NCBI GenBank assembly: GCA_965248265.1
Contig: CBDFJF010000002.1
Location: 2,112,001 to 2,176,000 of the forward strand
Reading direction: 5' to 3'
DNA length: 64,000 bases
Source: Candidatus Latescibacterota bacterium
GTDB lineage: Bacteria > Latescibacterota > UBA2968 > UBA8231
This document shows, piece after piece, positions 1-35,343 of the stretch. The notes under the pieces were generated by a model. It was not told the origin of the DNA. It was given only the letters and a program-made list of their open reading frames with translations, and did not search any database. Position numbers and translations under genes: made by a program. Each line of letters opens with the position of its first letter. The first letter of the stretch is position 1.

Positions 1-123
1 AACGCCAAAGAGTTCCCATGTGTTATCTGCGGAGCCCAGGTGGAACTCGGCACGGGCACACAGGGTGCTGGGGGTGAGAGCCAGCAGGAGGGCGCCGGTC
101 ACCAATCCGATGCGTCTTTTCAT
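1..123 (-). CDS. N-terminus of cassette protein D, copy 1 (secreted; truncated by window edge)
   Basis: Hand translation from ATG 123: MKRRIGLVTGALLLALTPSTLCARAEFHLGSADNTW. Signal peptide present; 'ARAEFHLG...W' matches 'ARSEFRLG...W' of 18628..20730; same position after protein B. Confidence 0.8.
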   Translation of the reverse strand, partial: MKRRIGLVTGALLLALTPSTLCARAEFHLGSADNTWELFGV

Positions 124-137
124 AAGTATATCGTTCC

Positions 138-3100
138 TCAGTAAGCCACGGCGATGACTCGGGAGCTCTTGCGACTGCCTTCGGCCGCATCAGCGGAGAC
201 GTCGATCTGACACAGGTAGAGGCCTGGGGGCACCAGGTTTCCTCCGTCGTCGCGACCGTCCCAGGCGATCTCCTGCTTTCCGCTCACGGTCTCGATCTCG
301 AGGCGGCGGACCGGGTCGCCGCCCAGGGTGTAGAGGCGCACGGCGACGGTGCGTGCGGTGGAGACCTTGAACAGTGAAAACCGGATCTGCGCCGCGTCGT
401 TGACGCCGTCGTTGTTGGGCGTGAAGGGATTGGGGGCGATGGCGATGTCGTCGACCAGCTTGCCCGTGTCCTCGGCGAAGATGACCAGGCTGCTGGCCGG
501 GCGCAGCGCGGTGACATCGCCCTCGCCGGCCTCCTGCCAGGGGGCGTCCACCTTGCTGTTGCGCACCGCCACGTGCAGCTGCGTGCTGGGCCCGTAGAGG
601 GCGGCGGCCACGCGCAGGCGCAGCAGCTTCCCGGGGCCGACGACGGAACCGCGCCGGTTGCCCAGGCGACGGTGATCGATCTGATCCAGGGTGTCGCCGA
701 GGCTGTTGAACACGGTCTGCTCCCCCAGGCCGGTGACGATGCGGAAGTAGCGCACTGGCCCCTGCTCCTCCTCCGGTAGCTCCTCGTAGGCGGCCCCATC
801 ATCCACCTCCTCCAGGGTCCCGTCGCTGGCGATCTGGAAGTAGCGCGTGGCGCCCCGCTCCTCCGCGATCAGCTGGGCGTGGCTATGGACGCTCAGCAGC
901 CGGCCGTCCAGCGTGGTGGGGACTTCGTCGCCGGGCTCCAGTATCCGGAAGTATTGCCTGGGAAGCACCGTCGCCTCCACGCTGTTCTGGAGGGCGTCCT
1001 CGGGCAGGTGCAGCAGCAGGGAATCCGCCCGGGTGGTCTCGGTCACCTGGAGGACCTGGCCGTCGGCATCCTGGAGGCCGTCGGCGTGGGGCCGGTCGAA
1101 GATCAGCTCCGGTTCCCCGGCACCGAGCTCCGACTCGGTGCCCACCGCCACGTCGACGACCTGGAGCGCGAGAGCCGGGTTGGCCAGCACCAGAACCTCG
1201 TCGAAGCCCGGACTGGGCTCGAGTTCGTCGTCAAAAGTCTGCACGACGAAATCGGGCTGCACGAAGACCTCGAAGGTGTCCAGGCGTCCCGGCCGGGCCA
1301 GATCGGGCCAGACCTCGGCGCCCAGCCGCTGCGCCACAGGGGTCCGCAGATCGATGCTGAGACGCCTGACGGAGGGCACCGCCTGACGGTCGTGGTTGAC
1401 GAGGCGCACCTGGAACTGCATGAAGCGGCGCAATCCCGGCGACGTGGCCGTCTCGCCCGAGCGCTCGTATTTGCGGCTCCAGGGGCTCCACCCGGGTCCC
1501 ACTACATCCGAAACGTGGATCAGACCTTTGAGTGCGCGCGGCAGGCCGTTATAGGCCTTTTCAGTTAAGGAGCAATTTCCCCCGGTGTTGCAGTAGATGG
1601 TCTCCTCCAACTTCTGAGCGCCGGTGCGCGTGCGAATCTCCACCTCGGAACCGGGGGGCGCGTCGGCTTCCCAGCGGACGGCGCCCAGCGTGAAGCTGCC
1701 GGGCAGCTCGATCAGGTCCGACTCCAGGACCGCCTCGGCGGTAGGGGCGCTGCTGAAGAGCGACATCAGCCCGATTTGGGGGGGCCGAGCGCGGCTCCAG
1801 AATCCGTGTTCGGCCCTGTCTTGGTCGTGGGCGAAGGTGATGAAGTCCAGGTAGCGGACGCGGCGGGTCGGGTCCAGCAGGTCCGCCGTACGGGCGTAGA
1901 ATCCCTGCTCGAAGTTGTTCTCCCGCTCGACGGGAGAGATCTGCTGCCACTGGAGATTGCCCTGGGGGTCCCTGGCGCCGTTCGAGCTGCGGATGAGGTA
2001 GCCCCGCGAGCGCTCGCGTTCGCCGGGTCCCGTGAGTATCCGGAGCTCGTCCAACCACACGGTGCCGCCGAGGTCGATGGTGACCGTGTTTTGCTCCGGA
2101 TGGTTCGGGAGGAAGGTCGACATCGGGTATGAGGTGGGGGCTTCGCCGTCGAACAGCAGCAGAGGATCCCCGGGACCGGAGAGTGTGCCGCCGCCCTCCA
2201 GAAAGCCCACGCCGATGTCGTCTCCCCGGCCCCAGGCCTCCACCTCGGCCAGACGCGGCAGCTCGCGGCGGTAGTACACCTGGCGGCCGCGCCGGTCTTC
2301 CGGCAGCTCGTCATAGGTCTCCTCGTCCACCGGCTCCTCGAAGTCCCCGTCCTTGAGGAAGTAGACGATGTCGCCGCGCTCGCTCGCCGGAAGGGCCTGC
2401 CACTCCTCCTGGCTGACCTCCTCCGCCCGGCCTCCGCGGGTATCGGTGACGAGGATGCGAACAACGTGCATGAGCTTGCCCCTCCACTCCGGGGAGGCCT
2501 CAAATTCATCGGGTAACCTCTTGCTTTCCTCCGACCGAGCGTCCGGGGGCAGGTCCTCACTGACCTGCGCGGCATCGAAGACGAACTCCCGCCTGTCGGT
2601 GTTCGCCCCTTCGAAGGGGATGAAGTTCTGCAGTTGGGTCGGGTCGGTCGGGTAGTAGACGCTCTGTTTCGGCCCCAGGAGCAGGATGTAGCGGTAGAAG
2701 GGATCCCCCAGGCTCTCATCGACGAAGGTCAGCCGCAGTCGCTCGAGAGGCACCGCCCAGCCCAGGTCGATTTCGACCCACCAGTCCTCTTCGGGGGCGT
2801 CCAGGTCGGGCTCCCAGAAGGTGCTCGGGTCGCCGTCGACGATGTTCTCCTTCAACCGGTCGTTCGATCCGGCGCGGCTCACGCCGGGGCGAACGGTGTA
2901 GTCATAGACGAAGTTGTCGCTCCTGTCCGTGATAATGGCGCCGGTGATGTCCCGCTTGAGCGTGCTGTCTATGTTGCTGATGCGCGCCGTCTTCTGCCCC
3001 ACCGCCACCGAGCGAGAGAAGGATTCGCCCTGTAACAAGCTGTATACGGAACGAAAGTCACGAGCCCGCACCCAGCCATTGGTCTCGACGCGGACCAGAT

Positions 3101-3305
3101 GGGTCGGCAAGGTCCAGTCCTGCCAGTGCGAAGCCCGGTCGACGATGACCCGGTCGCCGACTATCCGGTGGCCCTGCGCGTGGAGGGGGAGGGCCCCACC
3201 TGCCAGCAGCAACGGTAAGAGGCAGAGCGCGCGGGCGCACGCCCAGAACGCGTGGAGGCCCGGCCGGCGGCCGACGCTCCCTACCTGCTCTACACTTGCC
3301 TTCAT
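138..3305 (-). CDS. Cassette protein B, copy 1: ~1055-aa secreted protein with discoidin/F5-8C-like modules and C-terminal CHU_C/FlgD-Ig-like domain
   Basis: Start moved to ATG 3305 (ATGA overlap with upstream stop). Signal peptide ending ...LPLHA; NIVDGDPSTFWEP..WWVEIDLG; IRTRTG..WSPWS..SPGLRRFMQFQ; PNPFTPNNDGVND..WDGRDDGGNLVPPGLY..IAVAY. Paralog of 20743..23949. Confidence 0.85.
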   Translation of the reverse strand: MKASVEQVGSVGRRPGLHAFWACARALCLLPLLLAGGALPLHAQGHRIVGDRVIVDRASHWQDWTLPTHLVRVETNGWVRARDFRSVYSLLQGESFSRSVAVGQKTARISNIDSTLKRDITGAIITDRSDNFVYDYTVRPGVSRAGSNDRLKENIVDGDPSTFWEPDLDAPEEDWWVEIDLGWAVPLERLRLTFVDESLGDPFYRYILLLGPKQSVYYPTDPTQLQNFIPFEGANTDRREFVFDAAQVSEDLPPDARSEESKRLPDEFEASPEWRGKLMHVVRILVTDTRGGRAEEVSQEEWQALPASERGDIVYFLKDGDFEEPVDEETYDELPEDRRGRQVYYRRELPRLAEVEAWGRGDDIGVGFLEGGGTLSGPGDPLLLFDGEAPTSYPMSTFLPNHPEQNTVTIDLGGTVWLDELRILTGPGERERSRGYLIRSSNGARDPQGNLQWQQISPVERENNFEQGFYARTADLLDPTRRVRYLDFITFAHDQDRAEHGFWSRARPPQIGLMSLFSSAPTAEAVLESDLIELPGSFTLGAVRWEADAPPGSEVEIRTRTGAQKLEETIYCNTGGNCSLTEKAYNGLPRALKGLIHVSDVVGPGWSPWSRKYERSGETATSPGLRRFMQFQVRLVNHDRQAVPSVRRLSIDLRTPVAQRLGAEVWPDLARPGRLDTFEVFVQPDFVVQTFDDELEPSPGFDEVLVLANPALALQVVDVAVGTESELGAGEPELIFDRPHADGLQDADGQVLQVTETTRADSLLLHLPEDALQNSVEATVLPRQYFRILEPGDEVPTTLDGRLLSVHSHAQLIAEERGATRYFQIASDGTLEEVDDGAAYEELPEEEQGPVRYFRIVTGLGEQTVFNSLGDTLDQIDHRRLGNRRGSVVGPGKLLRLRVAAALYGPSTQLHVAVRNSKVDAPWQEAGEGDVTALRPASSLVIFAEDTGKLVDDIAIAPNPFTPNNDGVNDAAQIRFSLFKVSTARTVAVRLYTLGGDPVRRLEIETVSGKQEIAWDGRDDGGNLVPPGLYLCQIDVSADAAEGSRKSSRVIAVAY

Positions 3306-6016
3306 TGCCCCTGCTCCAGTCCAGCGTAAATGCTGATGAACGTCTGCACCGTGGTGGACGGATCCTCGCCGCGCGGATCGAAGCGTTCCACTGAGAACCC
3401 CGTCGCCATCAACATGCTGTAGCCCTGGTAGGCCGAGTTGGTGGTGACCTGGAGGCCGATGGACCGGGAGTTGAAATCCTCCGCGCGGCCGTTCAAATCC
3501 CGGGAGATGAGGTACTCGACGCCTGCCTGCAGACGGGTATCGGTCAACAGCGGCACGATAGCCAGGCCGGAAAACAGCTCCGTCAGGACGGTGCGGTCCC
3601 CGTCGTCGAAAAGGGTCCGACTGTGGTCTATATACTCGCTTTTCCACCGGGGCACAAGCTCCAGTGGCCCCAGGCGATAGGTATAGGAGGACTTGTTGAT
3701 CAGACCGAAGAAGTAGTCGGATTCGTCCAACCCGTATTCCGTCCGCTCCTGAGCGTTCAGGCGCTGGGAGAAACGGATGAAGTTGAGCTTGCTCTGCACG
3801 AAGAAGGCCCCCCGCTGCCAGTGATGGCCGGCGAAGGACTGGCTGACCCAGGTGTCCCGCGCCAGCAGCGGATCCTTCACTTCCGTGAGACGGCCAAGCA
3901 ACAGGGATTGATCGACCCGCCACTGCCACAGGTCGTCCGGAATGTCGTCGCGAACCGACTGGAGCATCCCGAAGAGACGCAGGCGTCCCCAGCGGGGCCA
4001 GGAGCGCATGAACCGCACCATCCCGTAGTCGCTGTGGTTGCGCCGAGCGGAGGCGATCGATTCGTCCCGCAGGGCCCCGGCCGTGACTTCCAGTTCAGGG
4101 GTCAGATGATATGTGCCGAAGGCGTTGAATCCGCGGTGGTCCCTGGGGTAGGGGTAGTCCGGTTCGTTGTCGTTCTCGAAGTGGTCCACCCAGTAATTGT
4201 GGTTCATGTCCACGCCGAGCAGGAATTCGGGACGGTCGGACTCGAACCGCAGGAACGGCTCCTCGTAGTCGGGAAACGTATTGGGGTTGACCCGGTTGTC
4301 GTTCTGATTGTAGTCGGGGATGAAGTCGCGGTTGCGGTCCCAGCCCGGAAACACGCGGAAGTCCCAGCCGCCCTGCGCGAAGGTGTCATAGCGGCGGAGG
4401 TCGGGTAGGCGGTCCTGGTCGTCGTTGTCGTCCACCAGGTCGTACTTCAACCGGTCGACGTTGTAGGACATGTTGCCGTTCAAGTCGGCGACGAAGCTCT
4501 GCGTATTGTAGAGAGGATCGATGCTGTAGGTCTCCCCGTAGAGGAAGAGCCGGCCGGCCTGTTTGCCGACGTTCAACATCCACGCCGGCCGGGCGCGCTT
4601 GCCGCGGATGCCAGAGGAGCCCTCCTGCTTCTCGGTGATGGGATTGGGGAACTTGCGGTAGCTCCACGACAGGTCGTACTCTCCGTACAGGTCGAAGCCC
4701 AACACGTCGCTCACTCTGAGGCTGCCGCCGACGAGGTGCGTGGCCGTGGGCAGACCGTACTCGAACTCCACTACGGTCAGATTGGAGCCGTCCTTGATGT
4801 TCCCCTCCGCCCGCTCGACCATGAGCAGCGTGTTCTGCTGGTCCGATATGACCCAGATCTGGTAGTCGTTCGCCAGGGTCATACGGAACTCGATCTGGGC
4901 GATCTCGCTGCGGTCCGCATGCGCCCGGGCGACGAAGGAAGGATCGGTGAGGTCGTAGGTCAGGCGGATCTCGTCGTTCCCATTGGCGTCGAGAAAGCCC
5001 TGGCCGGGGACCCCGCCCTGCACGACAGGCTCGAAGCGGATGTCCTTGCCGGTGTCGCGCTGACCGTCCACGTAGGTGATGATGATGTCGGACCCGGCCG
5101 GGAAGAAGGTCGCGCCGCTCTCTTCGTCCTCCGGCGAGTCGTCCCGCAAGACGACCTCGATCCGGGTCACTTGCTGGTTCATGGCCTCCGGGATGGTCCC
5201 GGATATCATGTTGTCCACGAGCTGTTCGTTCTGACTGTTGGACTGGTGGGCATTGGCCATGTGGACTCCCAGCTCCACGAAATCGCCCACCTGCGCCACG
5301 AGGCGACCCCCGATGATGGTCGTGACGTCGGTGCGGGGACGCGGTTCCTCCCGCCAGCCGATGCCCCCCTGGGAGTAGAGGAGGGTGGCGCTGTACTTGT
5401 TGGTCATGAAGTCGAGCTGCACGCCGTTGTACCGGGCCTTCGAGAAGACCAGCGGAGTCAGGGTCGTGCGCAGGTCGCGGCCGACGGTGAGGGCATAGCG
5501 ATACTGACCTTTCGACTCGGAGGCGACGGCGACGCCGCCGAACCATTGGTTCATGCGCGAGGCCTCGACGATGACGTGGCCCGACTCCGTGGGGGTCGTC
5601 TGACTGGCGTTGTAGAGCAGCCAGCCCTGGGTGAGGAGGTTGCCGTAGAGGTCGTAGAACGCATCTCCGGCAGGGTCCTCTACGTAGCCTTGGGCGGGGG
5701 CGGGCTCCCCGACGTAGCGGGAGTACGGGTCCCGAGCGTAGTTGATGGTCTCCCAATTCCGCCACGCGTACTCCGCCTGGAGCTCCTGCGGCGCGTACCA
5801 CCTGCGCATCGTCGGGTTGACCGTCTCCATCAGGACCACGGGCCCCTGGGGTCCGAAGCTGCGAATCCCCGCCTGGGTCTCACCCAGCCGGGCGCCGTAA
5901 TCGACCTGGGCGCCCGCCGTATCGAGGCCGATGACGGAGCCTGCCAGGAGTAGGATAGAGACCAACCTCAACGTCGTGCTCGAGCTCTTCTGTCGGGTCC
6001 GGTGGTCCTCTTTCAT
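3302..6016 (-). CDS. Family A protein (A2, copy 1): 904-aa exported protein with acidic Ca-binding-like block and predicted C-terminal beta-strands (putative outer-membrane protein)
   Basis: Signal peptide then QVDYGARLG; RTTLTPLVFSK; DDNDDQDRLPD..FPGWD..PDYEEPFL..DYPY; C-terminal FISIYAGLE(QGQ). Six paralogs in the window. Confidence 0.85.
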   Translation of the reverse strand: MKEDHRTRQKSSSTTLRLVSILLLAGSVIGLDTAGAQVDYGARLGETQAGIRSFGPQGPVVLMETVNPTMRRWYAPQELQAEYAWRNWETINYARDPYSRYVGEPAPAQGYVEDPAGDAFYDLYGNLLTQGWLLYNASQTTPTESGHVIVEASRMNQWFGGVAVASESKGQYRYALTVGRDLRTTLTPLVFSKARYNGVQLDFMTNKYSATLLYSQGGIGWREEPRPRTDVTTIIGGRLVAQVGDFVELGVHMANAHQSNSQNEQLVDNMISGTIPEAMNQQVTRIEVVLRDDSPEDEESGATFFPAGSDIIITYVDGQRDTGKDIRFEPVVQGGVPGQGFLDANGNDEIRLTYDLTDPSFVARAHADRSEIAQIEFRMTLANDYQIWVISDQQNTLLMVERAEGNIKDGSNLTVVEFEYGLPTATHLVGGSLRVSDVLGFDLYGEYDLSWSYRKFPNPITEKQEGSSGIRGKRARPAWMLNVGKQAGRLFLYGETYSIDPLYNTQSFVADLNGNMSYNVDRLKYDLVDDNDDQDRLPDLRRYDTFAQGGWDFRVFPGWDRNRDFIPDYNQNDNRVNPNTFPDYEEPFLRFESDRPEFLLGVDMNHNYWVDHFENDNEPDYPYPRDHRGFNAFGTYHLTPELEVTAGALRDESIASARRNHSDYGMVRFMRSWPRWGRLRLFGMLQSVRDDIPDDLWQWRVDQSLLLGRLTEVKDPLLARDTWVSQSFAGHHWQRGAFFVQSKLNFIRFSQRLNAQERTEYGLDESDYFFGLINKSSYTYRLGPLELVPRWKSEYIDHSRTLFDDGDRTVLTELFSGLAIVPLLTDTRLQAGVEYLISRDLNGRAEDFNSRSIGLQVTTNSAYQGYSMLMATGFSVERFDPRGEDPSTTVQTFISIYAGLEQGQ

Positions 6017-6038
6017 GGAAACCTCATAGTTCAGAGCG

Positions 6039-8102
6039 CTAGTACGCTATCCCCACCGTGCGCGCGGCTGTGCTGGAGCGATCGTCGCCCTCTATCTCCA
6101 ACCGCACGATGTAGAGTCCCTGGGGCAGCAGGTCGCCGTGGTCGTCTTTCCCGTCCCAGTTGAGGCCGGTGTAGGGGCCGTTGTCTCCGTTCTGTTCGAA
6201 GATCGTCGCTACGCGCCGGCCGCTGATATCGAAGGCCGCGATCCGGATGTCGGCTCCCAACACGGTGAGCACCTCGAACCTCAGACCCAGGAGGTCGTTG
6301 GCCCCATCGTCGTTGGGCGTCAAGACGGGGTTGTCCAGGGTGAAAGCCCCGATCAGTCCGGTGCTGCTCACCCCCGAGCTCAAGACCGTGACTCCGGAAT
6401 CGAAGGCGGCGTCGTCCTCGTCCAGAAGGGCGGCCTCTCCCGACTGGATCCACTGGAATGCGTCGGTCCCCTCGACGGCCCCTCGGCCACTGAAGTCGTT
6501 GCTGTAGGCGAAGATCCGGGTGACGAAGTGGATCTTCAAAATCGTGTCGTCCTCCTGGATGTGAGGAAAACGCACGGTGAACCCCCCATCGGTGATGGAG
6601 GTGATGGCCGCGTCGCCTTCATCGGTGATATCATTCTGCACGGCGAAGGTGTGGTCCAGGAGGCTCTCGCCGCTGGCGTCTGTGATCTCCAGGCGCTCGA
6701 TGCGCTCGACCGGTCCCGGTGTCGACATCTCGAAGCTGTTGAAGCCCTGGACCTCCTGGCCCTGCATTTGTGCGCGCACCGCGTAGACGAAAGAGACATC
6801 GCGGGCGGCTTCCACGTCGCGGGGGAAGATCTCGGCCACCAGGGCATCCGCCAGCGCGGGTCGGGTGAACTCGAAGGAGACTCCGTTGAGGACGTTTGTG
6901 GAGAACAGCTCTTGGCTCGAGAAGTCGACCTGGAACTGGAGGTAGGTCCTCGGTGCCGGAGAGGTGTTGCGGACACCCGTCGAGCTCACGGCTTGGTCGA
7001 TCGAATACGGCGGGGACCACGGGCTCCAGTTGTCCAGGTCGGCCTCTATGGCCCCGCGCTCCCACGGATCGGCCTGTGTCCCGTCGACGGGCAGGGAGCG
7101 GAACTCCTGCCGGGACATCGGCTCGCCCGGGTTGTCGACGGAGAAGGGGATATCCTCCGCGCTCGGGTTGCCCACCTCCCGCCGGTTGTAGACGAAGGGC
7201 GTTTCGTCGCCGCCCGTGCGCGTGCGGATGGTGACGTCCGTCCGCGTCGAGTCTCCCAGGATGGTCCTGTCCAGATGAATCTGTCCCCAGTTGCTCGGTC
7301 TGCCCAGGTCGACGACGGGCGACAGGTACTGGGCGGTCGGGAAGTACCCATCCCCGAAGATCTGGATCTTCTCGATCTCGAAGGGGATGGCCTCCGAGGC
7401 GCGGAGGCGGATGAAGCGGAGGTACCGGGCTGGATCGAAATCGATGGAGGTCACGGGTTCGGGGTTGTTCGTGACCGTCAGGAACGACTCCCAGGTTCCC
7501 AACGCCGGCGTCCCGGCCTCGTTCAGCTGCACACCGTCGTGGACCCGAAGCTCGAAGTTCCTCAGGTAGTCATTCTGGAACGGTGTGGTGGGAGAGGGAA
7601 AGAACGTGTTTCGGGGGAAGAAGCGAATGAGGCGGACACCGACGGTGGCGCCCATGTCCACGGTGATGAGGGTGCCCAGGACGATGTCCCCCTTGCGCTC
7701 GAAGGCCTCCCCATTCGGGTCCTCGGTCAGGAGGCCTTCCAGGAGCTGCGCCAGCAAGCCGGGGGAAAGATCGTTGGACGTCGGCGAAAGGATGCTGCCG
7801 CCCTCCAGGATCAGCTTGGAGGCCAGGTTCTCCTCCCTGTCCAGCTGCAGGGGCAGCAAGGCTTCCGAATGGTCGGGATGGTCGAGCTCGATGCGCCCGC
7901 CGGGAGCGATGCCGATGTCGGTTGTGGTCGGGTCGAGGGCAGGGACGTACTCCGGCGGGGAAGTGTCGACGTCCTGCAGTCTGGAGACCTCGCCCTCCCA
8001 GGTGACGTTGCCGTCCTGGCCAAAGCGCAGCTCCTCGCCCCCCGACAGGGAAGGCGCCAGAAGGGCCGCCATCCCGAGGATGGAGAGAGTCCGTATCCGC
8101 AC
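6039..8102 (-). CDS. Cassette protein C, copy 1: 687-aa secreted protein with discoidin-like module and CHU_C/FlgD-Ig-like C-terminal domain
   Basis: GTG start overlaps upstream TAG; signal peptide; VDMG..IRFFPRN; IRTRTG..WSPWS..YLQFQV; LTPNDDGAND..WDGKDDHGDLLPQGLY..VGIAY. Confidence 0.85.
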   Translation of the reverse strand: MRIRTLSILGMAALLAPSLSGGEELRFGQDGNVTWEGEVSRLQDVDTSPPEYVPALDPTTTDIGIAPGGRIELDHPDHSEALLPLQLDREENLASKLILEGGSILSPTSNDLSPGLLAQLLEGLLTEDPNGEAFERKGDIVLGTLITVDMGATVGVRLIRFFPRNTFFPSPTTPFQNDYLRNFELRVHDGVQLNEAGTPALGTWESFLTVTNNPEPVTSIDFDPARYLRFIRLRASEAIPFEIEKIQIFGDGYFPTAQYLSPVVDLGRPSNWGQIHLDRTILGDSTRTDVTIRTRTGGDETPFVYNRREVGNPSAEDIPFSVDNPGEPMSRQEFRSLPVDGTQADPWERGAIEADLDNWSPWSPPYSIDQAVSSTGVRNTSPAPRTYLQFQVDFSSQELFSTNVLNGVSFEFTRPALADALVAEIFPRDVEAARDVSFVYAVRAQMQGQEVQGFNSFEMSTPGPVERIERLEITDASGESLLDHTFAVQNDITDEGDAAITSITDGGFTVRFPHIQEDDTILKIHFVTRIFAYSNDFSGRGAVEGTDAFQWIQSGEAALLDEDDAAFDSGVTVLSSGVSSTGLIGAFTLDNPVLTPNDDGANDLLGLRFEVLTVLGADIRIAAFDISGRRVATIFEQNGDNGPYTGLNWDGKDDHGDLLPQGLYIVRLEIEGDDRSSTAARTVGIAY

Positions 8103-10120: not shown

Positions 10121-10125
10121 AGCAG

Positions 10126-12798: not shown

Positions 12799-12856
12799 CG
12801 ACAGGCTCCCGTGCGAAAAGGCAAGTCCGGCAAGGACAGCCGGACTCCGCTCATTT

Positions 12857-14974: not shown

Positions 14975-15064
14975 GCACATCGAGAGGTGGCAGTGTTCCA
15001 TGAGCAGATGGGCATGACAGAAGAAGTCAAAGCTGCCTTCGAGCGGGCGACCTTCCTACAGTGA
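14975..15064 (+). pseudogene. Probable remnant of a TPR-protein C-terminus
   Basis: Reads AHREVAVFHEQMGMTEEVKAAFERATFLQ*, a TPR-like pattern. Its TGA overlaps the GTG at 15061. No credible full gene upstream. Confidence 0.35.
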
Positions 15065-17133: not shown

Positions 17134-17134
17134 A

Positions 17135-17314: not shown

Positions 17315-17360
17315 AAAAAAAAGTTGGGCAGGTCAACGAGCGACCTGCCCAACCTTTCTC
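17315..17360 (-). terminator. Rho-independent terminator (likely bidirectional)
   Basis: Perfect 12-bp stem gttgggcaggtc (17323-17334) / gacctgcccaac (17342-17353), 7-nt loop. A8 at 17315-17322 gives U8 on the minus strand; pyrimidine tract on the plus side; lies between convergent genes. Confidence 0.85.
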
Positions 17361-18403: not shown

Positions 18404-18470
18404 GTATCCTCTTTCTCCTCCTCCTGCTGCCAGGAAAGGTGGGGCGTTACACCTAACAGTTGTACGAAAG

Positions 18471-18512
18471 GTGATGTGAGTCGTTACAGGTGTGATGTGA
18501 GTCGTTACAGGT
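18471..18512. repeat. 21-bp perfect tandem duplication in the 5' leader of 17420..18403
   Basis: gtgatgtgagtcgttacaggt x2. Confidence 0.95.
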
Positions 18513-18558
18513 ACTGAATTGGATCTCCCTAAATCATAGAATTCTGATTTGGCACATC

Positions 18559-18587
18559 AAGTTAATAGAACCGGAAAAGACAATCAA
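18559..18587 (-). promoter_or_regulatory. Sigma70-type promoter for 17420..18403
   Basis: Minus strand TTGATT-17 nt-TAACTT with an upstream A6 tract, in an AT-rich intergenic region. Confidence 0.5.
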
Positions 18588-18627
18588 GCGTTTTTTGACG
18601 CGGAACTACCATCATTCCAACGGCTCC

Positions 18628-20730: not shown

Positions 20731-20742
20731 CCAAGCTCCTTG

Positions 20743-23700: not shown

Positions 23701-23949
23701 GAGCACATCGGAGACCCCGCGGAAATGCCGCGACCGCACGGCACCGTCTTCCACGACCGTCAGATAGGTGGGCCTGTTCCAATTCCTCCAGTGCGAATCG
23801 AAATCCACCACAACCTGGTCATCATCGACGCGGGCGCCCTGAGTCTGCTGGGCGAGGGAAGGGCCGTTGGCGGTGAGGATGATAGTTGAGAGGAGGAGAA
23901 TGGGCAGGAGAGATGAGGCACAGGTGCGCCTGAAGCGTGTCTCAATCAT
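20743..23949 (-). CDS. Cassette protein B, copy 2 (~1068 aa)
   Basis: Start moved to ATG 23949 behind GGAGGA. Collinear with 138..3305; ends PNPFTPNDDGVND..VPPGLY..IAVAY. Confidence 0.85.
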   Translation of the reverse strand: MIETRFRRTCASSLLPILLLSTIILTANGPSLAQQTQGARVDDDQVVVDFDSHWRNWNRPTYLTVVEDGAVRSRHFRGVSDVLSDRSFTRSVIVTRPLPRIANMDSTRLLDALGQPATDRNDDPIYSYFVRPGISRVGSNSHLADNIFDGVDTTYWEPNFDDPPENWWIEVDLGRPVAVERVRLDFAEEGDGDPFFRFVMLVSEEQTLFRDEGSGINSNVFIPFEGINTDQRVFVFDSSRLGGALPLEAMTVEPESNTFAVEDSDAPAGAYNGNPTADVEWTGRMLETIRIFVSSSRMGRAQQISEEEWQALPVDDRGDIVYFLRDGDFEEPVEDEATYLKLAQDRRGRLEYYRRERPRLAEIKVWGWGDEVGIQLAAGGGSIASTFPGDETQYFDGNWASENVMDAIIPERPGSNVLTLDLGGILWMQQVRMATRGAPRGHILRGSTGTLDAQGEKQWTVLSTPDHEINIDTGFHRFLVNQFTPLQRVRFFELFFLAHSTEGETTDRFSPRIREIFLYPGAAPPAEVVLESPPIDVQGLFNLGGVHWEAQTPPGSDVEIRTRTGDQLVEVTRYYDKAGNEVTGKDEEAKINNYNRLRSFKGPIITSLEIGSGWNPWSQRYSVSGELATSPGLRSQLQIQARLINHDQETVPVLEKIIVDLEQPLAHGLGAEVWPALTLPGRLDTFEVFLQPDFLQRPEVSPGIDEIRLRSDPPIDLRMVDLAVGTEAELGADQPVQLFDRWFVEDGRSMLLDAASASPDTLQVMSQGDSLWLVLPEVLESTPAALLQRSYFRLVSPGDDENPADEVPTDLSGTLLTFYSHSALRDEERGQVIHFRQVGEGDALTDDDVVTAAEYEELPDEEKGPIRYFRKVSSVGNQSAYDELGNLLVSQYPRSRERGWEIGPGRLVRLRFTSEVYLPTTVLNVAVRNSGVEAAWQVAREQDVTELRPAQTLVIRAPQPTGVIDDVAIAPNPFTPNDDGVNDLAQIDFSLFRVFDERPIALRIYTLGGHLLWQQEKEFLGGRQTMEWNGMDMNGHLVPPGLYLCQLEALADADVDGLKQTRVIAVAY

Positions 23950-23971
23950 TTCGTAATCCTCCAAAGGTTCG

Positions 23972-26662: not shown

Positions 26663-26675
26663 GGACTCACCAAGT

Positions 26676-28856: not shown

Positions 28857-30931
28857 GGTGCCATCTCCATGGTTTTTCTCAACATCAGATTGCTCTCCTC
28901 CTCCATGCGCTGTTCCATATCTGCCCTGCGCCTCTCCAGGCGGTAGCGTTCGTACAGCTTCATGATCTCCTCAGCCTCCGCATGCCGGCCCTGCTCGCGA
29001 TAGATCGCGCTCAGGTAGAAGTACGTCTGGTGTACCTCGGTTTGCAGTCGACGCAGGCGCTCGAGATACACCAGGGCTTCCTCGAACTGGCGCCGCTCGT
29101 AAAGCAGCCTGCCCAGGTGAGCCAGGGCCAACTCGGAGTCCGGATTGACCCCGGAGAGGATGTTCCGCAGCAGGGACTCGGCTTCCGTTGGTCGTCCCGC
29201 CTCGACGTGCAGTCGAGCGAGTCGCAGACCGGCTTGCTCGCTCCACTCCGGATCAGCGAGGAGCCGGAGGTAGGCCTCGGCAGCGTCAGCGCGCCGCTCC
29301 TCCTGGATGTACAGAAGGGCCGCGAGATAGCGCACTTCGCCATTTTCAGGTTGCCGGGTCAACAACTTCTCGTAGGCACGGATGGCGCCTGGTCGATCTT
29401 TGGTCAGTAGACGGGCTTGCGCCAGCCGCGGCAGGGCGAAATCCGCATCGATGGCAGTCAGCTCTTCGTACGTCTCCACCGCTTCCACAAAGCGCTCTGA
29501 AGCCATGTAAGCCGCGGCGAGGTCTTTGACGGCCCCGGTGTGATTGGGCCAGCGTCGCAGCAGCTTCTCATAGACGGCAACTGCCCGGTCGGAGTCGTTT
29601 CCCTTGCTATAGACGGTGGCCAGGGACAGGTAGGAATCGATGCGGTCACTCCCATGGCGTACCGCTGATTCGTACTCACTCTGAGTGTTGATCGTCATAC
29701 CTCGCCGCGCGTAAGCCTCACCTCGCCAGTGATGCTGCTCGGCGACGACGGACGGGGCTCCCTGGTAAAAGTTGAGCCCGATGAACAACACCAGGAAAGC
29801 GCTCAGACTCAACCGGCGCTCCTTCCGGTTCGCACCGAGCCAGGTGGATACTCCGGCCGCGGCGATCAGGAGAAGGATCGGCACGATCACAGCGCGACCG
29901 GCTGCGTCCGCTTCGAAGAACATCGCTGTCACCCCCGTGGTGCCAACGAACAGGAGCAGGAAAGTCTCCGCCGGCGAACGAGCAGGATCGCGCAGGCGCG
30001 GATCGCGGAGGCGCGGATCGCGGAGGCGCGGATCGCGGAGGCGCGGATCGCGGAGGCGCGGATCGCGGAGGCGAGAGCCGACGCCGACCAGGGCCAGAGG
30101 TCCGACGATGCCGAAAGGAAAGGCCAATCCCCACACCCACATCAGCGCCGCGAGCAGCGACGAATAACGGCTGGCGTAGTACGGATCTTCTACCAGGACC
30201 TCGTGACCGCGCCAGAAATCGTACAGCCCTGCAGCGCTCACGGATACATCCTGCAGCGGCCACCGCCAGCCATGAGACCACATACCCAGCAGGGCGACGG
30301 CCACAAACCCGAGCAGCATACTGGTAGCTCCGTCCCTCAGCCGCGCGTAGCGCCACATCCACCACGCCGCAATCGGCGCAAACAACAGAAGATGAGCGCC
30401 ACTGAGGGTGGCACAACCGAATAGCACGCCGGCTACCCAGAATCTCCATCCCCGCGGTTGCTGCGTCAGGGCCGATACTGCAACCCGCAGTGCCAGCAGG
30501 CTGAAAAAGATGGCCAGCACCGTCGGCTGCAAGGCGCCATCGAAGTAGATGAAGGGTCCATAAAGGGCACATGCAAGGCCCGTGATCAGTGCGACACGAT
30601 GACTGACCAGACTCCGCGCCAGACTCCACAACAACAGGCAGTTGAGCGCCCCGATAACGGTCTGAAGGTCTCTGACTTGAGCCAAGTCCTCGCCGAAGAG
30701 GCGGAAAACGGAGTGGAGAAACAGCGCGTACAGAGAGGCCGGGGTCTCCTCCGTATGCACAGCCCAGGGCAGCTTTTGCTGGGCCAGGTCCACATACGAC
30801 TCAGCGGATCCCACTACAACGTCGAATAGAGGGTCCTGCCCCATCTGATCGAGGTAGATCTGCCTCGACAGGAGAGCCACCGCGCCGATGACGGCGACTT
30901 GAGCGGCGTTCTTTTTCAGTTCCGGAGCCAA
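28853..30931 (-). CDS. GT-C-like membrane protein + TPR, cassette copy 2, with an in-frame (RLRDP)6 insertion
   Basis: ALYGPFIYF and GLAFPFG shared with 8102..10120; TPR C-terminus. Confidence 0.75.
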   Translation of the reverse strand: MAPELKKNAAQVAVIGAVALLSRQIYLDQMGQDPLFDVVVGSAESYVDLAQQKLPWAVHTEETPASLYALFLHSVFRLFGEDLAQVRDLQTVIGALNCLLLWSLARSLVSHRVALITGLACALYGPFIYFDGALQPTVLAIFFSLLALRVAVSALTQQPRGWRFWVAGVLFGCATLSGAHLLLFAPIAAWWMWRYARLRDGATSMLLGFVAVALLGMWSHGWRWPLQDVSVSAAGLYDFWRGHEVLVEDPYYASRYSSLLAALMWVWGLAFPFGIVGPLALVGVGSRLRDPRLRDPRLRDPRLRDPRLRDPRLRDPARSPAETFLLLFVGTTGVTAMFFEADAAGRAVIVPILLLIAAAGVSTWLGANRKERRLSLSAFLVLFIGLNFYQGAPSVVAEQHHWRGEAYARRGMTINTQSEYESAVRHGSDRIDSYLSLATVYSKGNDSDRAVAVYEKLLRRWPNHTGAVKDLAAAYMASERFVEAVETYEELTAIDADFALPRLAQARLLTKDRPGAIRAYEKLLTRQPENGEVRYLAALLYIQEERRADAAEAYLRLLADPEWSEQAGLRLARLHVEAGRPTEAESLLRNILSGVNPDSELALAHLGRLLYERRQFEEALVYLERLRRLQTEVHQTYFYLSAIYREQGRHAEAEEIMKLYERYRLERRRADMEQRMEEESNLMLRKTMEMAP
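29985..30074. repeat. 15-bp coding VNTR, 6 units
   Basis: ggatcgcggaggcgc repeated (first unit ggatcgcgcaggcgc); encodes RLRDP x6 on the minus strand. Confidence 0.95.
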
Positions 30932-30934
30932 CGT

Positions 30935-33652
30935 TTATTCCAGACCGGCAAAGACGGTGATGAAGAACCGGTTCGTGGTCCTGGACTTCTGTCTTTTGAA
31001 ATCGCGTCTCTCCATCACGGACCCAACCAGTGTCGTCAGTTTGTATCCCAGATAATCCGACGAATTGGCAAACTGAAACCCCCAGGACAGCGAGTCGAAA
31101 TCCAGGGCATCGTCGTCGAAGTCATTGAAGTAGGCGTACTCGATACCCATCTGCAGGAGGGTAGCCCTCAGAATCGTGGTTTCCAGCAGTCCAGAGAAAA
31201 TCTCCGTCAGAGCCGTGCGTTTGGCGGTGCCGGCGGCGGGCTTCAGCAGACCGCGAGACTGCTTGATGAACTCACTTTTCCAACGGGGCACGACTGTGAA
31301 GGCGCCGAGACGCCAGCGGTAGCTGGCTTTGTCGATCACACCGAAGAAGAAGTCCGAAGAGTCGAGTCCCAGCTGCTCACGACGCTGTCTGTTCAGCTGG
31401 CGGTAGTGGATGTAGCTGACCTTGTTCATCACAAACCAGGGGCCGGTCTGCAGCGTATGGCCCCCGAAAAACTGATTCACCCAGGTATCCTGTCCCAACA
31501 GGGGATCCTCCACCCTGACCAGCTCGCCACCGCGGAGCGTGTTGTCCGGTGCCCACTGCAACAGCGGGTTGGGGATGTTGTCTTCGACTTTCTGGGTCAT
31601 GTTGAAGAGGCGCAGGCGACCGATACGGGGGGTGTCGAGGTCGAGGGTCATGACGGCGTAATTGCTGTGGTTGCGCTTGTTGGCGGAGATCAGCTCCTCA
31701 CGCAGAGCGCCCACGGTCAATTTGATTTCAGGGGTTATGTTGGCTCCGCCGTAAATGTTGTAGCCCTCGTGGTCCTTGCGATACGGGTAATCGGGCTCCT
31801 CGTCGTTCTCGTACTGATCGATCCAGAAGTTGTGATTGAGGTCGACACCGAAGAGAAACTCGGGCCGGTCCACGCCGAAGCGGAGGAAGGGTTCCTCGAA
31901 GTCGGGCTCGGAGTTTGAGCGCGTGATGGTGTCATTCTGGTTGAAGTCCGGGATGAAGTCGTTGTTCTGATCCCAGCCCGGGAAGACTTGAGCATCACCC
32001 GAGCGCCAGTCGCGGCGCACGGTGTCGGGCCGGATGTCCTGGTCGTCGTTGTCCTCGACCATCTCCACCACATGGTTGCGTTCGCTGGTGTAGTCTATCC
32101 GTCCATCCGGCGCAGCGACGAAGGTGCGTGTGTTGTATCGCGGGTCCATACTGTAGAATTCGCTGAAGAAGAAGAACGGGGCGGCCTGGTGCGCTACGTT
32201 TACCATCCACGCGGGCGCGCTCTCATCGCCCCCGATGCCGGAAGTGGCCTCGTGCTTGTCCTTGCCGAGTTTCGGGTATTTGCGGTAGCTCCAGCTCCGG
32301 TCATACTCGGCGTAGAGGTCGAAACCGAGGAATTCGCGTACTTCGAGGGAGGCTCCCGCGACATGGGTGGCGGTGGGCAATCCGTAGCTGAAGCGGAGGG
32401 TCGTCAAGTTGGTGATGTCCTTGACGTTGCCTTCCGCCTGGGTCACCAGTAGCAGCGCCGGTCGCCGTTCGATGTCCGTCTGTCGGTCCGAGGTCATCCA
32501 GACCTGGTAGTCGTTGCCTATTTGCAGGTCGAAATCGACGCCGACGATCTGGTCTTTGGAAAGGCTCAGATCTGCGAGGTTATTGTCGTTCCGATAGCGC
32601 TCGATGTTCTGCAGGTAATCGACGCCGTCGAAATCGTAGAGCAAGCGGATCTCCTCGGCGCCGTCGGCCGCGAGGAACCCCTGGCGCACGAAACCGCCGT
32701 CGATGACGGGTTCGAACTGAAAATCCGTGCCGCGCAGGACGGTGCCATCCTCATAAGTGATGATGATGTCCGTGCCGGCCGGGAAGAAGGCCGCCCCACC
32801 TTCGCCGTCTTCGGGTGAGTCGTCCCGCAACACGATCTGGATCAAGCCGATGGTCTGATTCTGATCCACGGTCAGGGCGCCGGCAAAAGGGGTCCAGTCG
32901 ACTTTGTCCGACAGGGTACTGCCTTGATGTGAGTTGACCATATGGGCCCCGAGCTTGACGAAGCTGCCCAACTGCGCTGTGAAGCGGCCCCCAAGCAGGC
33001 TGGTGAGGTTGGTGGTGCGCGACTCTCCGGTGCCTGTTGAGGAGCCACCGGGATCGCTGATACGGGAAAAGAGCAACGTCGCTTCGTAGCGATCGGCAGC
33101 CAGGTCGAACTGGATGCCGTCGAACATCGGCTTGGAAAAGACCATCGGTGTCAGCGTTGTGCGCAACCGATTGGAGATGCTCATCGCGTAGTGATACTGG
33201 CCCTTTTGGTCAGAAGCCACGAGGAGCCCGGAAAACCAGTCCTGGAAGCGCTCGGGTTTGACCAGGGTGTTGCCGAACTGCTGTGGGGAAGTCTGGGCGT
33301 TGTTGTAGATCAACCAGCCGCGGGTGACGAAGTTGCCGTAGAGATCGTAGAAGTAATCTCCCTCGAGGATGTTGGAAACGTAGCGCTGGTAGGGACTGCT
33401 GGCGTAGTTCGTGTACTCCCACTGCCGCCACCGGTGCTCCTCGAACAGCTCCTGAGGCACGTACCAGCGGCGCACGGCTGGATCGACGGCGTTGAGCATG
33501 ACGCCCGGTCCCTGTGGGTCGAAGCTGAGTGCCCCGCCCTGCCGCACTCCCAGACGTGACCCGTAGTCTGTCTGACCTGAAGCCGCCGTGTAGGCCATGA
33601 GCAGGTTGAGCACTGATATGCAGAAATACAGCGGGAGCCTGACGCTCATCAA
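30935..33652 (-). CDS. Family A protein (A1, copy 2)
   Basis: AAGGAAGG RBS; QTDYGSRLG; A1-specific NN.QT.PQQFGNTL shared with 10126..12798; ends FFITVFAGLE. Confidence 0.85.
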   Translation of the reverse strand: MMSVRLPLYFCISVLNLLMAYTAASGQTDYGSRLGVRQGGALSFDPQGPGVMLNAVDPAVRRWYVPQELFEEHRWRQWEYTNYASSPYQRYVSNILEGDYFYDLYGNFVTRGWLIYNNAQTSPQQFGNTLVKPERFQDWFSGLLVASDQKGQYHYAMSISNRLRTTLTPMVFSKPMFDGIQFDLAADRYEATLLFSRISDPGGSSTGTGESRTTNLTSLLGGRFTAQLGSFVKLGAHMVNSHQGSTLSDKVDWTPFAGALTVDQNQTIGLIQIVLRDDSPEDGEGGAAFFPAGTDIIITYEDGTVLRGTDFQFEPVIDGGFVRQGFLAADGAEEIRLLYDFDGVDYLQNIERYRNDNNLADLSLSKDQIVGVDFDLQIGNDYQVWMTSDRQTDIERRPALLLVTQAEGNVKDITNLTTLRFSYGLPTATHVAGASLEVREFLGFDLYAEYDRSWSYRKYPKLGKDKHEATSGIGGDESAPAWMVNVAHQAAPFFFFSEFYSMDPRYNTRTFVAAPDGRIDYTSERNHVVEMVEDNDDQDIRPDTVRRDWRSGDAQVFPGWDQNNDFIPDFNQNDTITRSNSEPDFEEPFLRFGVDRPEFLFGVDLNHNFWIDQYENDEEPDYPYRKDHEGYNIYGGANITPEIKLTVGALREELISANKRNHSNYAVMTLDLDTPRIGRLRLFNMTQKVEDNIPNPLLQWAPDNTLRGGELVRVEDPLLGQDTWVNQFFGGHTLQTGPWFVMNKVSYIHYRQLNRQRREQLGLDSSDFFFGVIDKASYRWRLGAFTVVPRWKSEFIKQSRGLLKPAAGTAKRTALTEIFSGLLETTILRATLLQMGIEYAYFNDFDDDALDFDSLSWGFQFANSSDYLGYKLTTLVGSVMERRDFKRQKSRTTNRFFITVFAGLE

Positions 33653-33705
33653 TTAACCTTCCTTTGCCAATATCGTGACAGCCGGAGGTAGCCGTTCTGC
33701 GAGTC

Positions 33706-35343
33706 CTACCCCAAGCGTTCTTCGAATATCTCGATGCGCTCCTCGTATTTATCGCGCAAGCTCCTGATGAACGCGATGGTGAGTTCCTGCTTGCGCTCCT
33801 CGGTGATCAAGTAACGTGCCTGTTGTTCCACTTTTTCGAATGGCCGAATATGGCTGTCGATGCGCTCGACGACACGTAAGAGCGAGTAGGCTTTGTGGTG
33901 CTTGACCCAGACAGGGCCCACCAGCTCGCCTTCCTGTGCGGCAAGGGTCGGCTCGATCAGCTCGGGCATGGCGCCGGCCCTTACCTTATGTACTCGCAGC
34001 TCACCTCCCAAGGCCCTTTTGCCATGGGTGTGCACGTCTTTCCGGGTCAGCAGTTCGGCGATCGTGGTGCCTTCCTCAAGTAACCGACGCCACTCTCTGG
34101 CCTCGGCCTCGCCGGCTGTATACACCTCACGCACGACCGCTTCCTCGAAGGCGCGGAAGCGCTCGCGGTTGGCGTCGTAGTAGGAGCGTACGTCTACATC
34201 TCGGATATCGAGCTGGTTGTCCACCTCATACCCCATCAGGTCTTTCACCAGCAGCTCGTCATGTTTGCGCTGGCGCCAATCGATTAATTCCTCCTCATCC
34301 TCCCAGCCCTCGTCGCGCGCAGCTGCGGCGAATAGCCACTTGTGTAATACCACTCTGTCTGCCAGATCGACGACCTGAGTGCTGTCTTCGAGGGGTATGT
34401 GGTGCCCGATCGCCTGTAGGCCCTTCAGGCACTCACCTGCGTCAATGTGACCACCATTGAAGCTGTAGAAGGGCTGTCCCGCCTGCTCCGGGGCCAGCTC
34501 CACTTTCTGCAGGTTCTCGTGTCCGATCAGAACGCGCAGACCCGGCATCAGGCGAACACCATACCTGTGGGTGAGAAGCTCGACCTGTTCCTGCTTCCGG
34601 AGCCAGACTTTCTCCTGGTAGGCACGTCGCTCGATCCGCTCCCGATGAGTGAAGAGATCCGCATCCCGATCCTCGACGAACTGGATGACTTGCCACAGCT
34701 GTGGTGAAATCTTGTTGATGGCGAACTCCCCCGTGGGAAGGGAAGTGAAAACCCGACGCTGGATGGACCACCGCCTGGCGTCCATGAGACTGATCCAGCC
34801 GAGCTCTCCGTCGCGGGTCAACTCGTCGTTGGTAGCGAAGCGCTGCGCCATCTCTTCGAAGGGAGAACCGGAATTCAGCTCTTTTGCGATCTGTTCCGCC
34901 TCGGTTTCGCTGCGCACCATTACGCGTCTCAACCGCCGTTCGCGGTCCAGACCCGTCTCCTTGAAAATGCGTTCGATGTCCTCCTCAGTGACCTCCACCT
35001 GGGGGCCGATGGTCCGGAATTCATACATCTGGGCCAGGCGCCCCTGGATCGTCTGCCGGAGATCGTACAGGAATGCCTCGTCCTCATGCAGACCCCGAGC
35101 CCGAGCCTCCACGATGAGCATCTGATGATCTAGGGCTGAGTTGAGGTGGTCGAGGTCGGCTTCCCGGCCCTTTTCCGTCGAGCGAACGGTCTCTGGCAAA
35201 CGCGCCACGAAACGCTCGAGATCGGCCACCGTGATCTGATTGTCGCCGAGGCGGGCGAGTACCGGGCTGTCATCGGAACCGCAGCCGGATAGGGTGACCA
35301 GTAGCAGAGAAATGATGAATCTCAGAGAAATGATGAATCTCAA
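33706..35343 (-). CDS. SurA/PrsA-like PPIase lipoprotein, cassette copy 2
   Basis: TTG 35343 behind GGAAGG; lipobox TLSG|C; PVLARLGDNQIT; GELVGPV; RPFE..FIRSLRDKY. Confidence 0.8.
   Translation of the reverse strand: MRFIISLRFIISLLLVTLSGCGSDDSPVLARLGDNQITVADLERFVARLPETVRSTEKGREADLDHLNSALDHQMLIVEARARGLHEDEAFLYDLRQTIQGRLAQMYEFRTIGPQVEVTEEDIERIFKETGLDRERRLRRVMVRSETEAEQIAKELNSGSPFEEMAQRFATNDELTRDGELGWISLMDARRWSIQRRVFTSLPTGEFAINKISPQLWQVIQFVEDRDADLFTHRERIERRAYQEKVWLRKQEQVELLTHRYGVRLMPGLRVLIGHENLQKVELAPEQAGQPFYSFNGGHIDAGECLKGLQAIGHHIPLEDSTQVVDLADRVVLHKWLFAAAARDEGWEDEEELIDWRQRKHDELLVKDLMGYEVDNQLDIRDVDVRSYYDANRERFRAFEEAVVREVYTAGEAEAREWRRLLEEGTTIAELLTRKDVHTHGKRALGGELRVHKVRAGAMPELIEPTLAAQEGELVGPVWVKHHKAYSLLRVVERIDSHIRPFEKVEQQARYLITEERKQELTIAFIRSLRDKYEERIEIFEERLG
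35305..35342. repeat. 18-bp tandem duplication in signal-peptide codons
   Basis: cagagaaatgatgaatct x2, giving LRFIIS-LRFIIS. Confidence 0.95.

Follow-up and report, generated by a model that had tools for sequence, protein, structure and literature searches.

Latescibacterota gene cassettes that join large predicted outer-membrane barrels to β-sandwich proteins with a type IX-like C-terminal domain

The subject of this report is a gene cassette of the bacterial envelope, found in a 64,000-nucleotide stretch of a Candidatus Latescibacterota genome (GenBank assembly GCA_965248265.1, contig CBDFJF010000002.1, positions 2,112,001 to 2,176,000) that we call the window; its G+C content is 55–69% in 2-kb windows. 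The open reading frame (ORF) listing and an all-against-all BLASTP comparison place two cassettes of identical gene order on the minus strand, copy 1 at 1–14572 and copy 2 at 17420–35385. A preliminary description made from the sequence had reported two minus-strand copies in the same order, as a unit of seven genes. The shared order is borne out, but an eighth gene, s, belongs to the unit, with a homologue in 52 of 74 related loci, usually as the last gene. The set thus consists of P (a peptidyl-prolyl isomerase, PPIase), A1, G, C, A2, B, D and s, laid out in the window as follows.

33706–35385, minus strand: P of copy 2, 559 amino acids (aa); lipoprotein PPIase/chaperone of the parvulin type
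30935–33652, minus strand: A1 of copy 2, 905 aa; large outer-membrane β-barrel (predicted)
28853–30931, minus strand: G of copy 2, 692 aa; polytopic PMT_2 domain (like the GT-C class of glycosyltransferases) with C-terminal tetratricopeptide repeats (TPRs)
26676–28856, minus strand: C of copy 2, 726 aa; secreted multi-β-sandwich protein with a C-terminal domain like CHU_C and the immunoglobulin (Ig)-like domain of FlgD
23972–26686, minus strand: A2 of copy 2, 904 aa; second barrel paralogue
20743–24033, minus strand: B of copy 2, about 1070 aa, likely start ATG near 23949; F5/8-type-C (discoidin) domain and CHU_C C-terminal domain
18628–20730, minus strand: D of copy 2, 700 aa; secreted relative of C with a CHU_C/FlgD-Ig C-terminal domain
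17420–18403, minus strand: s of copy 2, 327 aa; secreted, the eighth gene, after D
17323–17353, no strand assigned: hairpin with a 12-bp stem, from a terminator-like scan, between the convergent s and an extra G paralogue
12857–14572, minus strand: P of copy 1, 571 aa
10126–12894, minus strand: A1 of copy 1, up to 922 aa
8102–10120, minus strand: G of copy 1, 672 aa
6039–8102, minus strand: C of copy 1, 687 aa
3302–6016, minus strand: A2 of copy 1, 904 aa
138–3305, minus strand: B of copy 1, 1055 aa; start codon ATG overlapping the stop codon of A2 (ATGA)
1–123, minus strand: D of copy 1, first 41 codons only, the gene being cut by the window edge; the N-terminus matches the D family

The hairpin at 17323–17353 is the likely end of cassette 2. 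Both copies had been described as diverged yet intact; of the D gene of copy 1, the window shows the first 41 codons only. Protein identity between the copies is 62% for A1, 59% for A2, 47% for B, 43% for C, 37% for G and 36% for the PPIase, with BLASTP E-values from 0.0 to 4e-99, far outside chance. The identity of A1 to A2 is 47–50%, lower than that of A1 to A1 or A2 to A2, and the copies are therefore orthologous position by position. The motifs that had been put forward for this pairing were found in the translations, NN.QT.PQQFGNTL in both A1 proteins and ASESKGQYRYA in both A2 proteins. The overlapping junctions could likewise be read in the sequence (TTGA at G/C of copy 2, ATGA at A2/B of copy 1 and TAGTG at G/C of copy 1), with gaps of 3–53 nt elsewhere; junctions this tight imply co-transcription. 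Other genomes hold closer orthologues of copy 1 than copy 2 is, in agreement with the suggestion of an old duplication under selection. On the sequence evidence the two-cassette duplication and the A1/A2 split are both old and maintained. Every product had also been called exported or membrane-bound, which fits the lipoboxes of the PPIases and the hydrophobic leaders of A, B, C, D and s, as far as N-termini judged by eye allow.

The A barrels provide the means of following the cassette into other genomes. A word-based search gave 894 proteins of the A family, and a profile search of 1.84 billion cluster representatives gave 977 with E-values of 0.001 or lower and 326 with 1e-30 or lower. All names obtained for these relatives, the distant ones included, read 'hypothetical protein'; the records are labelled Latescibacterota or Gemmatimonadota, with a few from Ignavibacteria, Bacteroidota, Bacillota and Pirellulaceae. 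Genome contigs scanned with the A alignment yielded at least 625 pattern matches, of which 477 were confirmed and the best 80 kept; these make up 74 loci, a sample selected through A in which many loci end at contig edges and several come from the same genome. Nearly all are from Latescibacterota genome bins, joined by several that carry the label Gemmatimonadota or Gemmatimonadaceae, one labelled Woeseia and one simply 'uncultured bacterium'. Amongst named records the cassette is almost confined to Latescibacterota.

Conservation of synteny across genomes had been set beforehand as the point on which the proposal could fail, and the gene set is kept together across the 74 loci. Besides s, B is present in 65, C in 64, G in 62, D in 56, P in 46 and a DUF6785 protein in 21; B adjoins A in 59, A adjoins G in 58 and A (as A2) adjoins s in 34. 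The commonest order is P-B-A1-G-C-D-A2-s. This full string occurs in 19 of the 74 loci, the shorter A-G-C-D-A-s in 31 and B-A-G in 50. The window order, P-A-G-C-A-B(-D-s), is that of a minority, found whole or in part in L051, L054, L055, L001 and L052, the closest relatives of copy 1. Several loci can share a genome: six lie on contig OZ244561.1 and five on OZ220690.1, counted amongst the best 80 of the 477 confirmed matches. In a tree of 114 A proteins, from which sequences with less than 85% coverage or with X residues were left out, the A1 type (followed by G) separates from the A2 type (followed by s or B), and the four barrels of the two window cassettes fall in the expected clades. Since the clades track cassette position, both barrels would seem to be kept and not redundant. 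Single-barrel cassettes form a deeper clade.

A1 and A2 were previously called outer-membrane components, with which our models agree, and A falls in no described family. There is no Pfam or NCBIfam match to A at E up to 0.01, none of 40 family members matches Pfam at E up to 1, and the A profile finds nothing amongst Protein Data Bank (PDB) sequences. Both proteins model as large β-barrels. The AlphaFold2 (AF2) model of A1 from copy 2, built from a 40-sequence alignment, has a mean predicted local distance difference (pLDDT) of 65, a predicted template modelling (pTM) score of 0.62 and some 24 long strands that run antiparallel across residues 143–905, with a small β domain inserted at about 270–410; two conserved parts, the N-terminal region (22–142) and an Asp-rich stretch (535–625), stay unmodelled. 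A Foldseek search with this model returned nothing but large outer-membrane barrels, namely MtrB, Deinococcus SlpA, LptD, TonB-dependent receptors and ushers, each with a low TM-score. The top matches are 6r2q_B, 8h1s and 5iv9, with MtrB at an E-value of 1.8e-8, and the best of them include barrels that hold a protein partner (MtrB and LptD) as well as the surface (S)-layer anchor SlpA. In MtrB with MtrA/MtrC and LptD with LptE a wide barrel holds another protein, and the A2-s adjacency may be compared with such pairs; the cassette proteins, however, lack CxxCH haem motifs and OstA/LptD or LptE matches, and the TM-scores are low. A search of a protein atlas with the whole of A reached only uncharacterized clusters, the nearest named one being DUF6029 at 0.89; this is a lead only, and DUF6029 is absent from the Pfam matches of the 40 A sequences. 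The N-terminal region of A gave nothing above 0.81 in the atlas, which is chance level. No longer, fused forms of A were found, an observation that is weak evidence. When residues 143–905 of A1 and the last 127 residues of C were submitted to complex prediction, with a separate alignment for each partner, the score was 0.01, where the mark is 0.32; this result speaks neither in favour of binding nor against it.

B, C and D had been recognized as related to one another, and BLASTP confirms this: they share their middle region and, at the C-terminus, a domain of about 85 aa, and C and D are 24–29% identical (E 1e-35). The AF2 model of C from copy 2 (pLDDT 84) is all-β, a string of β-sandwich domains. 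Its Foldseek matches are Ig/Fn3 adhesins, S-layer proteins (the archaeal 7ptp amongst them) and the discoidin domain of galactose oxidase. The last 80 aa of C match FlgD at an E-value of 3.3e-6 and the D family profile matches FlgD (3osv) at 1.5e-7; there is also a weak match between the C-terminal domain of B, C and D and that of PorU. B of copy 2 carries F5_F8_type_C (30.8 bits, cutoff 28.2) and CHU_C (27.8 bits, cutoff 27), B of copy 1 carries F5_F8_type_C (30.1 bits) and FlgD_ig (27.3 bits), and C of copy 1 reaches CHU_C at 27.0 bits. CHU_C (PF13585), which Pfam describes as a 'type IX secretion signal domain' and which is a family of type B sorting domains, is thus at or above its cutoff of 27 in three of the six window proteins (27.8, 27.0 and, for a C-like protein of the third cassette variant described below, 31.6 bits). 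Amongst 14 orthologues seven exceed the cutoff, the highest score being 46.5 bits across the full profile; the scores of FlgD_ig are comparable. The earlier statement that the cassette matches no type IX secretion system must accordingly be qualified, since B, C and D end in a domain resembling the one to which Pfam gives that name. As read from the sequences, this domain would connect the cassette with surface display in the style of type IX secretion. B, C and D could be carried as cargo by a type IX system whose genes lie elsewhere, and not be parts of a self-contained machine; that all the products form one machine, as had been proposed, is supported by no result obtained here.

The eighth protein, s, has several invariant residues. 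In all 28 sequences compared (s of the window and 27 homologues) an invariant His comes right after a leader-peptidase site of the AxA type, and the mature protein would therefore begin with this His. A second His (position 115), an acidic cluster (Asp112, Asp128, Asp129 and Glu132), a GESTYxYE motif and a C-terminal SWGxIK followed by two to five residues are also invariant. We take the invariant residues to resemble histidine-brace copper sites. CBM9_1 matches weakly in seven of the 28 sequences; an NCBIfam scan of the family and a search of PDB sequences with the s profile returned nothing.

P is, as was thought, a parvulin PPIase. Rotamase_2 scores 41.8 bits in copy 2 and 54.5 bits in copy 1 (cutoff 27), and a PPIC-type rotamase domain is present in all three PPIases of the window. 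Matches of the PrsA/PpiD type in NCBIfam (copy 2) and to SurA_N_3 (copy 1, 22.8 bits) are under cutoff. By eye, the lipoboxes read LSGC in copy 2 and LGGC in copy 1. The likeness to SurA, PpiD and PrsA lies in the Rotamase_2 domain, the SurA_N-like N-terminal part (under cutoff) and the envelope location; P differs in being lipid-anchored and in occurring once per cassette instead of once per genome, which suggests a dedicated set of clients.

The assignment of G as a glycosyltransferase-like protein with TPRs also stands at the level of domains. PMT_2 (cutoff 26.1) scores 35.6 bits over the whole of G from copy 2 and 38.6 bits over its N-terminal half, and many TPR families match as well; the values for copy 1 are 28.7 and 30.3 bits, again with TPRs. 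Seven of the 14 N-terminal halves scanned exceed the PMT_2 cutoff, and the G profile finds only TPR proteins in the PDB. G resembles PMT_2/TPR membrane glycosyltransferases (bacterial ArnT/PMT-like GT-C enzymes and the eukaryotic TMTC O-mannosyltransferases of cadherin domains) in that its PMT_2 membrane domain precedes TPRs, and the likely clients of G are Ig-like chains. GT-C enzymes are expected to carry one or more conserved acidic residues in the first extracytoplasmic loop, and here G departs from them. Amongst 23 aligned G proteins, for which the loop alignment is uncertain, the canonical Asp-Glu pair is found only in the extra paralogue at 15061–17133, a single acidic residue in most, and none in six. 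The glycosylation of periplasmic clients that had been ascribed to such enzymes is on this account insecure for the cassette, and G may be a non-catalytic scaffold. G of copy 2 also contains a 15-nt tandem repeat (29985–30073, 5.9 copies, 98% match) encoding an RDPRL run in a loop; none of the 22 other G proteins in the alignment has this run.

Our preferred reading, with a probability of about 0.4, is that the cassette encodes a complex dedicated to surface display at the outer membrane, with export possibly dependent on a type IX system whose genes lie elsewhere. All products would leave the cytoplasm through Sec. Clients would be held and passed on by the lipoprotein P and, in the periplasm, by the TPR arm of G, a protein of the inner membrane; G might also glycosylate them, although this is doubtful given that six G sequences lack the acidic residue. 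The paralogous barrels A1 and A2 would insert into the outer membrane and act as fixed partners of B, C and D, as anchors and possibly as conduits, through the CHU_C/FlgD-Ig C-terminal domain. Passage across the outer membrane might take place through the A barrels themselves or through a type IX system elsewhere. Once exposed on the cell surface, the CBM9-like s and the discoidin-like domains present in B, C and D would bind ligands, probably glycans.

The pairing of A with B, C and D would parallel the type B cargo of type IX secretion that is held by PorP/SprF barrels. Proteins with type B sorting domains are described as binding PorP-like barrels for surface anchorage (PMC9143113) and type B cargo genes as often linked to genes for their cognate shuttles (PMC12618676). 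Type IX secretion is described as possible in phyla of the Fibrobacteres–Chlorobi–Bacteroidetes (FCB) group besides Bacteroidota, in a list that does not name Latescibacterota (PMC11285876). Latescibacterota are members of the FCB group. The systems to compare are PG1035-PorP-PorE of Porphyromonas and SprB-SprF of Flavobacterium. There, as in the cassette, β-sandwich surface proteins (predicted to be so for the cassette) are Sec-exported and end in a CHU_C-like domain, the cargo genes adjoin genes for outer-membrane barrels, the host belongs to the FCB group and a partner has TPRs; PorE carries these repeats. An ORF of about 225 aa in one related locus (L033:3924–4598, minus strand) matches Por_Secre_tail at 28.4 bits (cutoff 27) and also FlgD_ig, and similar ORFs lie in four other loci; sorting domains of type IX secretion that are type A-like are thus present in these genomes.

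There are several differences from these systems, and several points that weigh against the surface-display complex. No PorP/SprF match was obtained for A, or for any of the 34 window proteins scanned, with Pfam, and A, at about 900 aa and with two conserved paralogues, is presumably some three times larger than PorP or SprF. The cassette adds a parvulin lipoprotein, the PMT_2/TPR membrane protein and s. No type IX core gene (SprA/Sov, PorK-N, PorV or PorU) was seen in the 64-kb window or in the 22-kb flanks examined. The NCBIfam type B model TIGR04131 scores no higher than 19 bits (cutoff 35), three of the six window proteins stay under the CHU_C cutoff (18.7, 23.9 and 24.9 bits), and the FlgD-Ig fold is also found in proteins with no role in secretion, FlgD and C5a peptidase for example. 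Two barrels face three cargo proteins in each cassette, and in one deep clade a single barrel faces three. The A model is only moderately confident and omits the most conserved stretch of the protein (residues 22–142), its TM-scores to large barrels in Foldseek are all 0.32 or lower, and the acidic residue of the first loop of G is lacking in the six sequences noted above.

It is conceivable, if doubtful, that the cassette serves instead to capture and take up nutrients, as a functional analogue of the SusCD loci of Bacteroidota, with A as channels, B, C and D as glycan binders, s as a metal-dependent and possibly oxidative accessory protein, and P and G as assembly factors. Like SusCD loci, the cassettes occur as many paralogues in one genome, three of them in the window alone, and combine a barrel with surface proteins that have domains of a carbohydrate-binding type. 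The discoidin domains of B score above cutoff, the fold of C matches that of the galactose oxidase discoidin domain, and s combines a weak CBM9_1 match in seven of 28 sequences with invariant His residues like those of histidine-brace copper sites; the adjacency of A2 and s in 34 of 74 loci calls to mind a barrel with a lid or plug protein. However, no TonB-dependent receptor and no SusD-like lipoprotein was found in the cassette with Pfam and NCBIfam. A has neither a Plug nor a TonB-dependent-receptor match and no TonB box was identified in it, and s is not a lipoprotein. Over the 74 loci and their flanks, no carbohydrate-active enzyme or regulator is conserved in or beside the cassettes, where SusCD loci have linked glycoside hydrolases and sensors. 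Moreover, a single architecture is kept across paralogous cassettes, whereas polysaccharide-utilization loci gain different enzymes.

A self-contained and undescribed system for export and display appears to us unlikely. In such a system A1 and A2, of a barrel family without known relatives, would themselves translocate lectin-like B, C and D and then hold them, served by the parvulin and by a TPR scaffold derived from a GT-C enzyme and independently of type IX secretion, with s adding a histidine-brace metal centre.

That the cassette builds envelope architecture is quite improbable in our judgement. A1 and A2 would then be giant SlpA-like barrels carrying a regular surface layer of B, C and D with a structural or protective role. 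SlpA of Deinococcus (7zgx, 8agd and 8ae1; Pfam SlpA_C) is a very large barrel, and it and its S-layer complex take ranks 2–4 of the Foldseek matches of A, with E-values from 2.6e-8 to 1e-7. The fold of C matches the archaeal S-layer protein 7ptp, and G could glycosylate the subunits of a layer, as is seen with the S-layer proteins of Tannerella, which are secreted by a type IX system. SlpA_C is seen below its cutoff of 35 in eight of 18 distant relatives of A, at best with 30.2 bits, but in none of 40 core A sequences. The TM-scores of A to SlpA are just 0.16–0.18, neither a stalk nor an SLH or other wall-binding domain is seen in A (Pfam and NCBIfam for the domains), and several divergent cassettes in one genome would be unusual for a single lattice.

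Least probable of these, and unlikely in our view, is a mere sharing of an operon without physical coupling, in which B, C and D would be ordinary cargo for a type IX system elsewhere and the A barrels general porins: the CHU_C and FlgD_ig C-terminal domains, the Por_Secre_tail ORF in the flanks of five related loci and the plain porins amongst the fold matches of A are in keeping with it, but linkage is tight and conserved over dozens of loci, the two barrel clades are specific to position and the junctions overlap, and an A protein of 900 aa with a conserved N-terminal region of 120 aa and an Asp-rich insert is unlike general porins.

Some other systems were considered and set aside. An electron conduit of the Mtr type was rejected on the count of CxxCH motifs, which is zero in A, B, C, D and s. 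Chaperone–usher assembly was rejected as Pfam has no usher or PapD-like match, ushers appearing only as fold matches of A with query-normalized TM-scores of 0.15–0.21. For LptD/BamA and curli there is no family match in Pfam or NCBIfam.

The nameable parts of the cassette belong to known kinds. Family models, solved structures, source annotations and the literature searched gave us no description of the cassette as a unit, of the A barrels, of s or of the N-terminal portions of B, C and D. Publications on outer-membrane gene clusters of Latescibacteria, judged by titles and the starts of abstracts, contain no description of the cassette, and searches on FlgD Ig-like domains with type IX secretion, on Latescibacter with type IX secretion and on DUF6785 found nothing. 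The text of PMC12993501, retrieved for Latescibacter, peptidyl-prolyl and TPR, does not contain 'secretion system', 'outer membrane', 'FlgD', 'adhesi' or 'discoidin'.

Latescibacterota, of which no member is known to be in culture, are found widely in sediments, sponges and waters, and the cassette bears both on how their cell surface is built and on what it binds. It is amongst the most repeated multi-gene units of their genomes, with up to six loci per genome in the sample examined, and its barrel family, with 977 cluster representatives at E up to 0.001, is unnamed, lacks a Pfam model and has no relative of solved structure. Should the barrels anchor or export type B-like cargo, the known modes of surface display in FCB-group bacteria would be widened; should the cassette prove to be an uptake system, it would be a counterpart of polysaccharide-utilization loci that does not use TonB. 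Either outcome would provide annotation for thousands of 'hypothetical proteins'.

The window contains more of the same material beyond the span covered by the preliminary description. A third, rearranged variant of the cassette occupies 54318–64000 and brings the total to six barrel genes and three cassettes within 64 kb. Its genes, and the extra G paralogue already mentioned, are as follows.

54318–56015, minus strand: PPIase of the third variant; Rotamase_2 72.4 bits (cutoff 27)
56048–57991, minus strand: DUF6785/DUF6784 polytopic membrane protein, divergent from the plus-strand arm
58019–60916, plus strand: A-like barrel; identity of the third variant to A 38–42%
60913–63228, plus strand: C-like protein, 29–33% identical to C; CHU_C 31.6 bits, FlgD_ig 33.7 bits
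63237–64000, plus strand: second A-like barrel, cut by the window end
15061–17133, plus strand: extra PMT_2-like/TPR paralogue of 690 aa, between the cassettes and transcribed away from copy 1; TPR families, with PMT_2 at 17.2 bits, under cutoff

In the third variant the DUF6785 protein occupies the place of G. The pair formed by this gene and the PPIase gene is adjacent in 16 of the 74 related loci, where it precedes the cassette; the DUF6785 protein had no match amongst PDB sequences. Between cassette 2 and the third variant lies a second repeated module, at 35512–45086, with a pair each of FG-GAP/UnbV_ASPIC proteins (41% identical), TPR proteins and DUF6785 proteins. One of its DUF6785/DUF6784 genes, at 43145–45086 on the minus strand, appears split into two overlapping ORFs in different frames (43536–45086 and 43145–43957) that together match the intact 659-aa paralogue at 38102–40081 with 67–71% identity, which points to a frameshift or an assembly error. 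FG-GAP genes flank 15 and TPR genes 17 of the 74 related cassettes. No other flanking family is present in more than eight of the 74 loci, and these are of ordinary kinds such as a phosphodiesterase, a two-component system and solute-binding proteins.

The neighbours at 45298–54124 are similarly ordinary: a protein of the metallo-β-lactamase fold, two dioxygenases of the PhyH family, an M20 peptidase and a protein of the class A β-lactamase family (Beta-lactamase2, 167.9 bits), of which a similar gene lies near the cassettes in three related loci. Two large ORFs at 46172–49667 on the plus strand (636 and 572 aa) have no Pfam match, and homologues of each stand beside two or three related cassettes.

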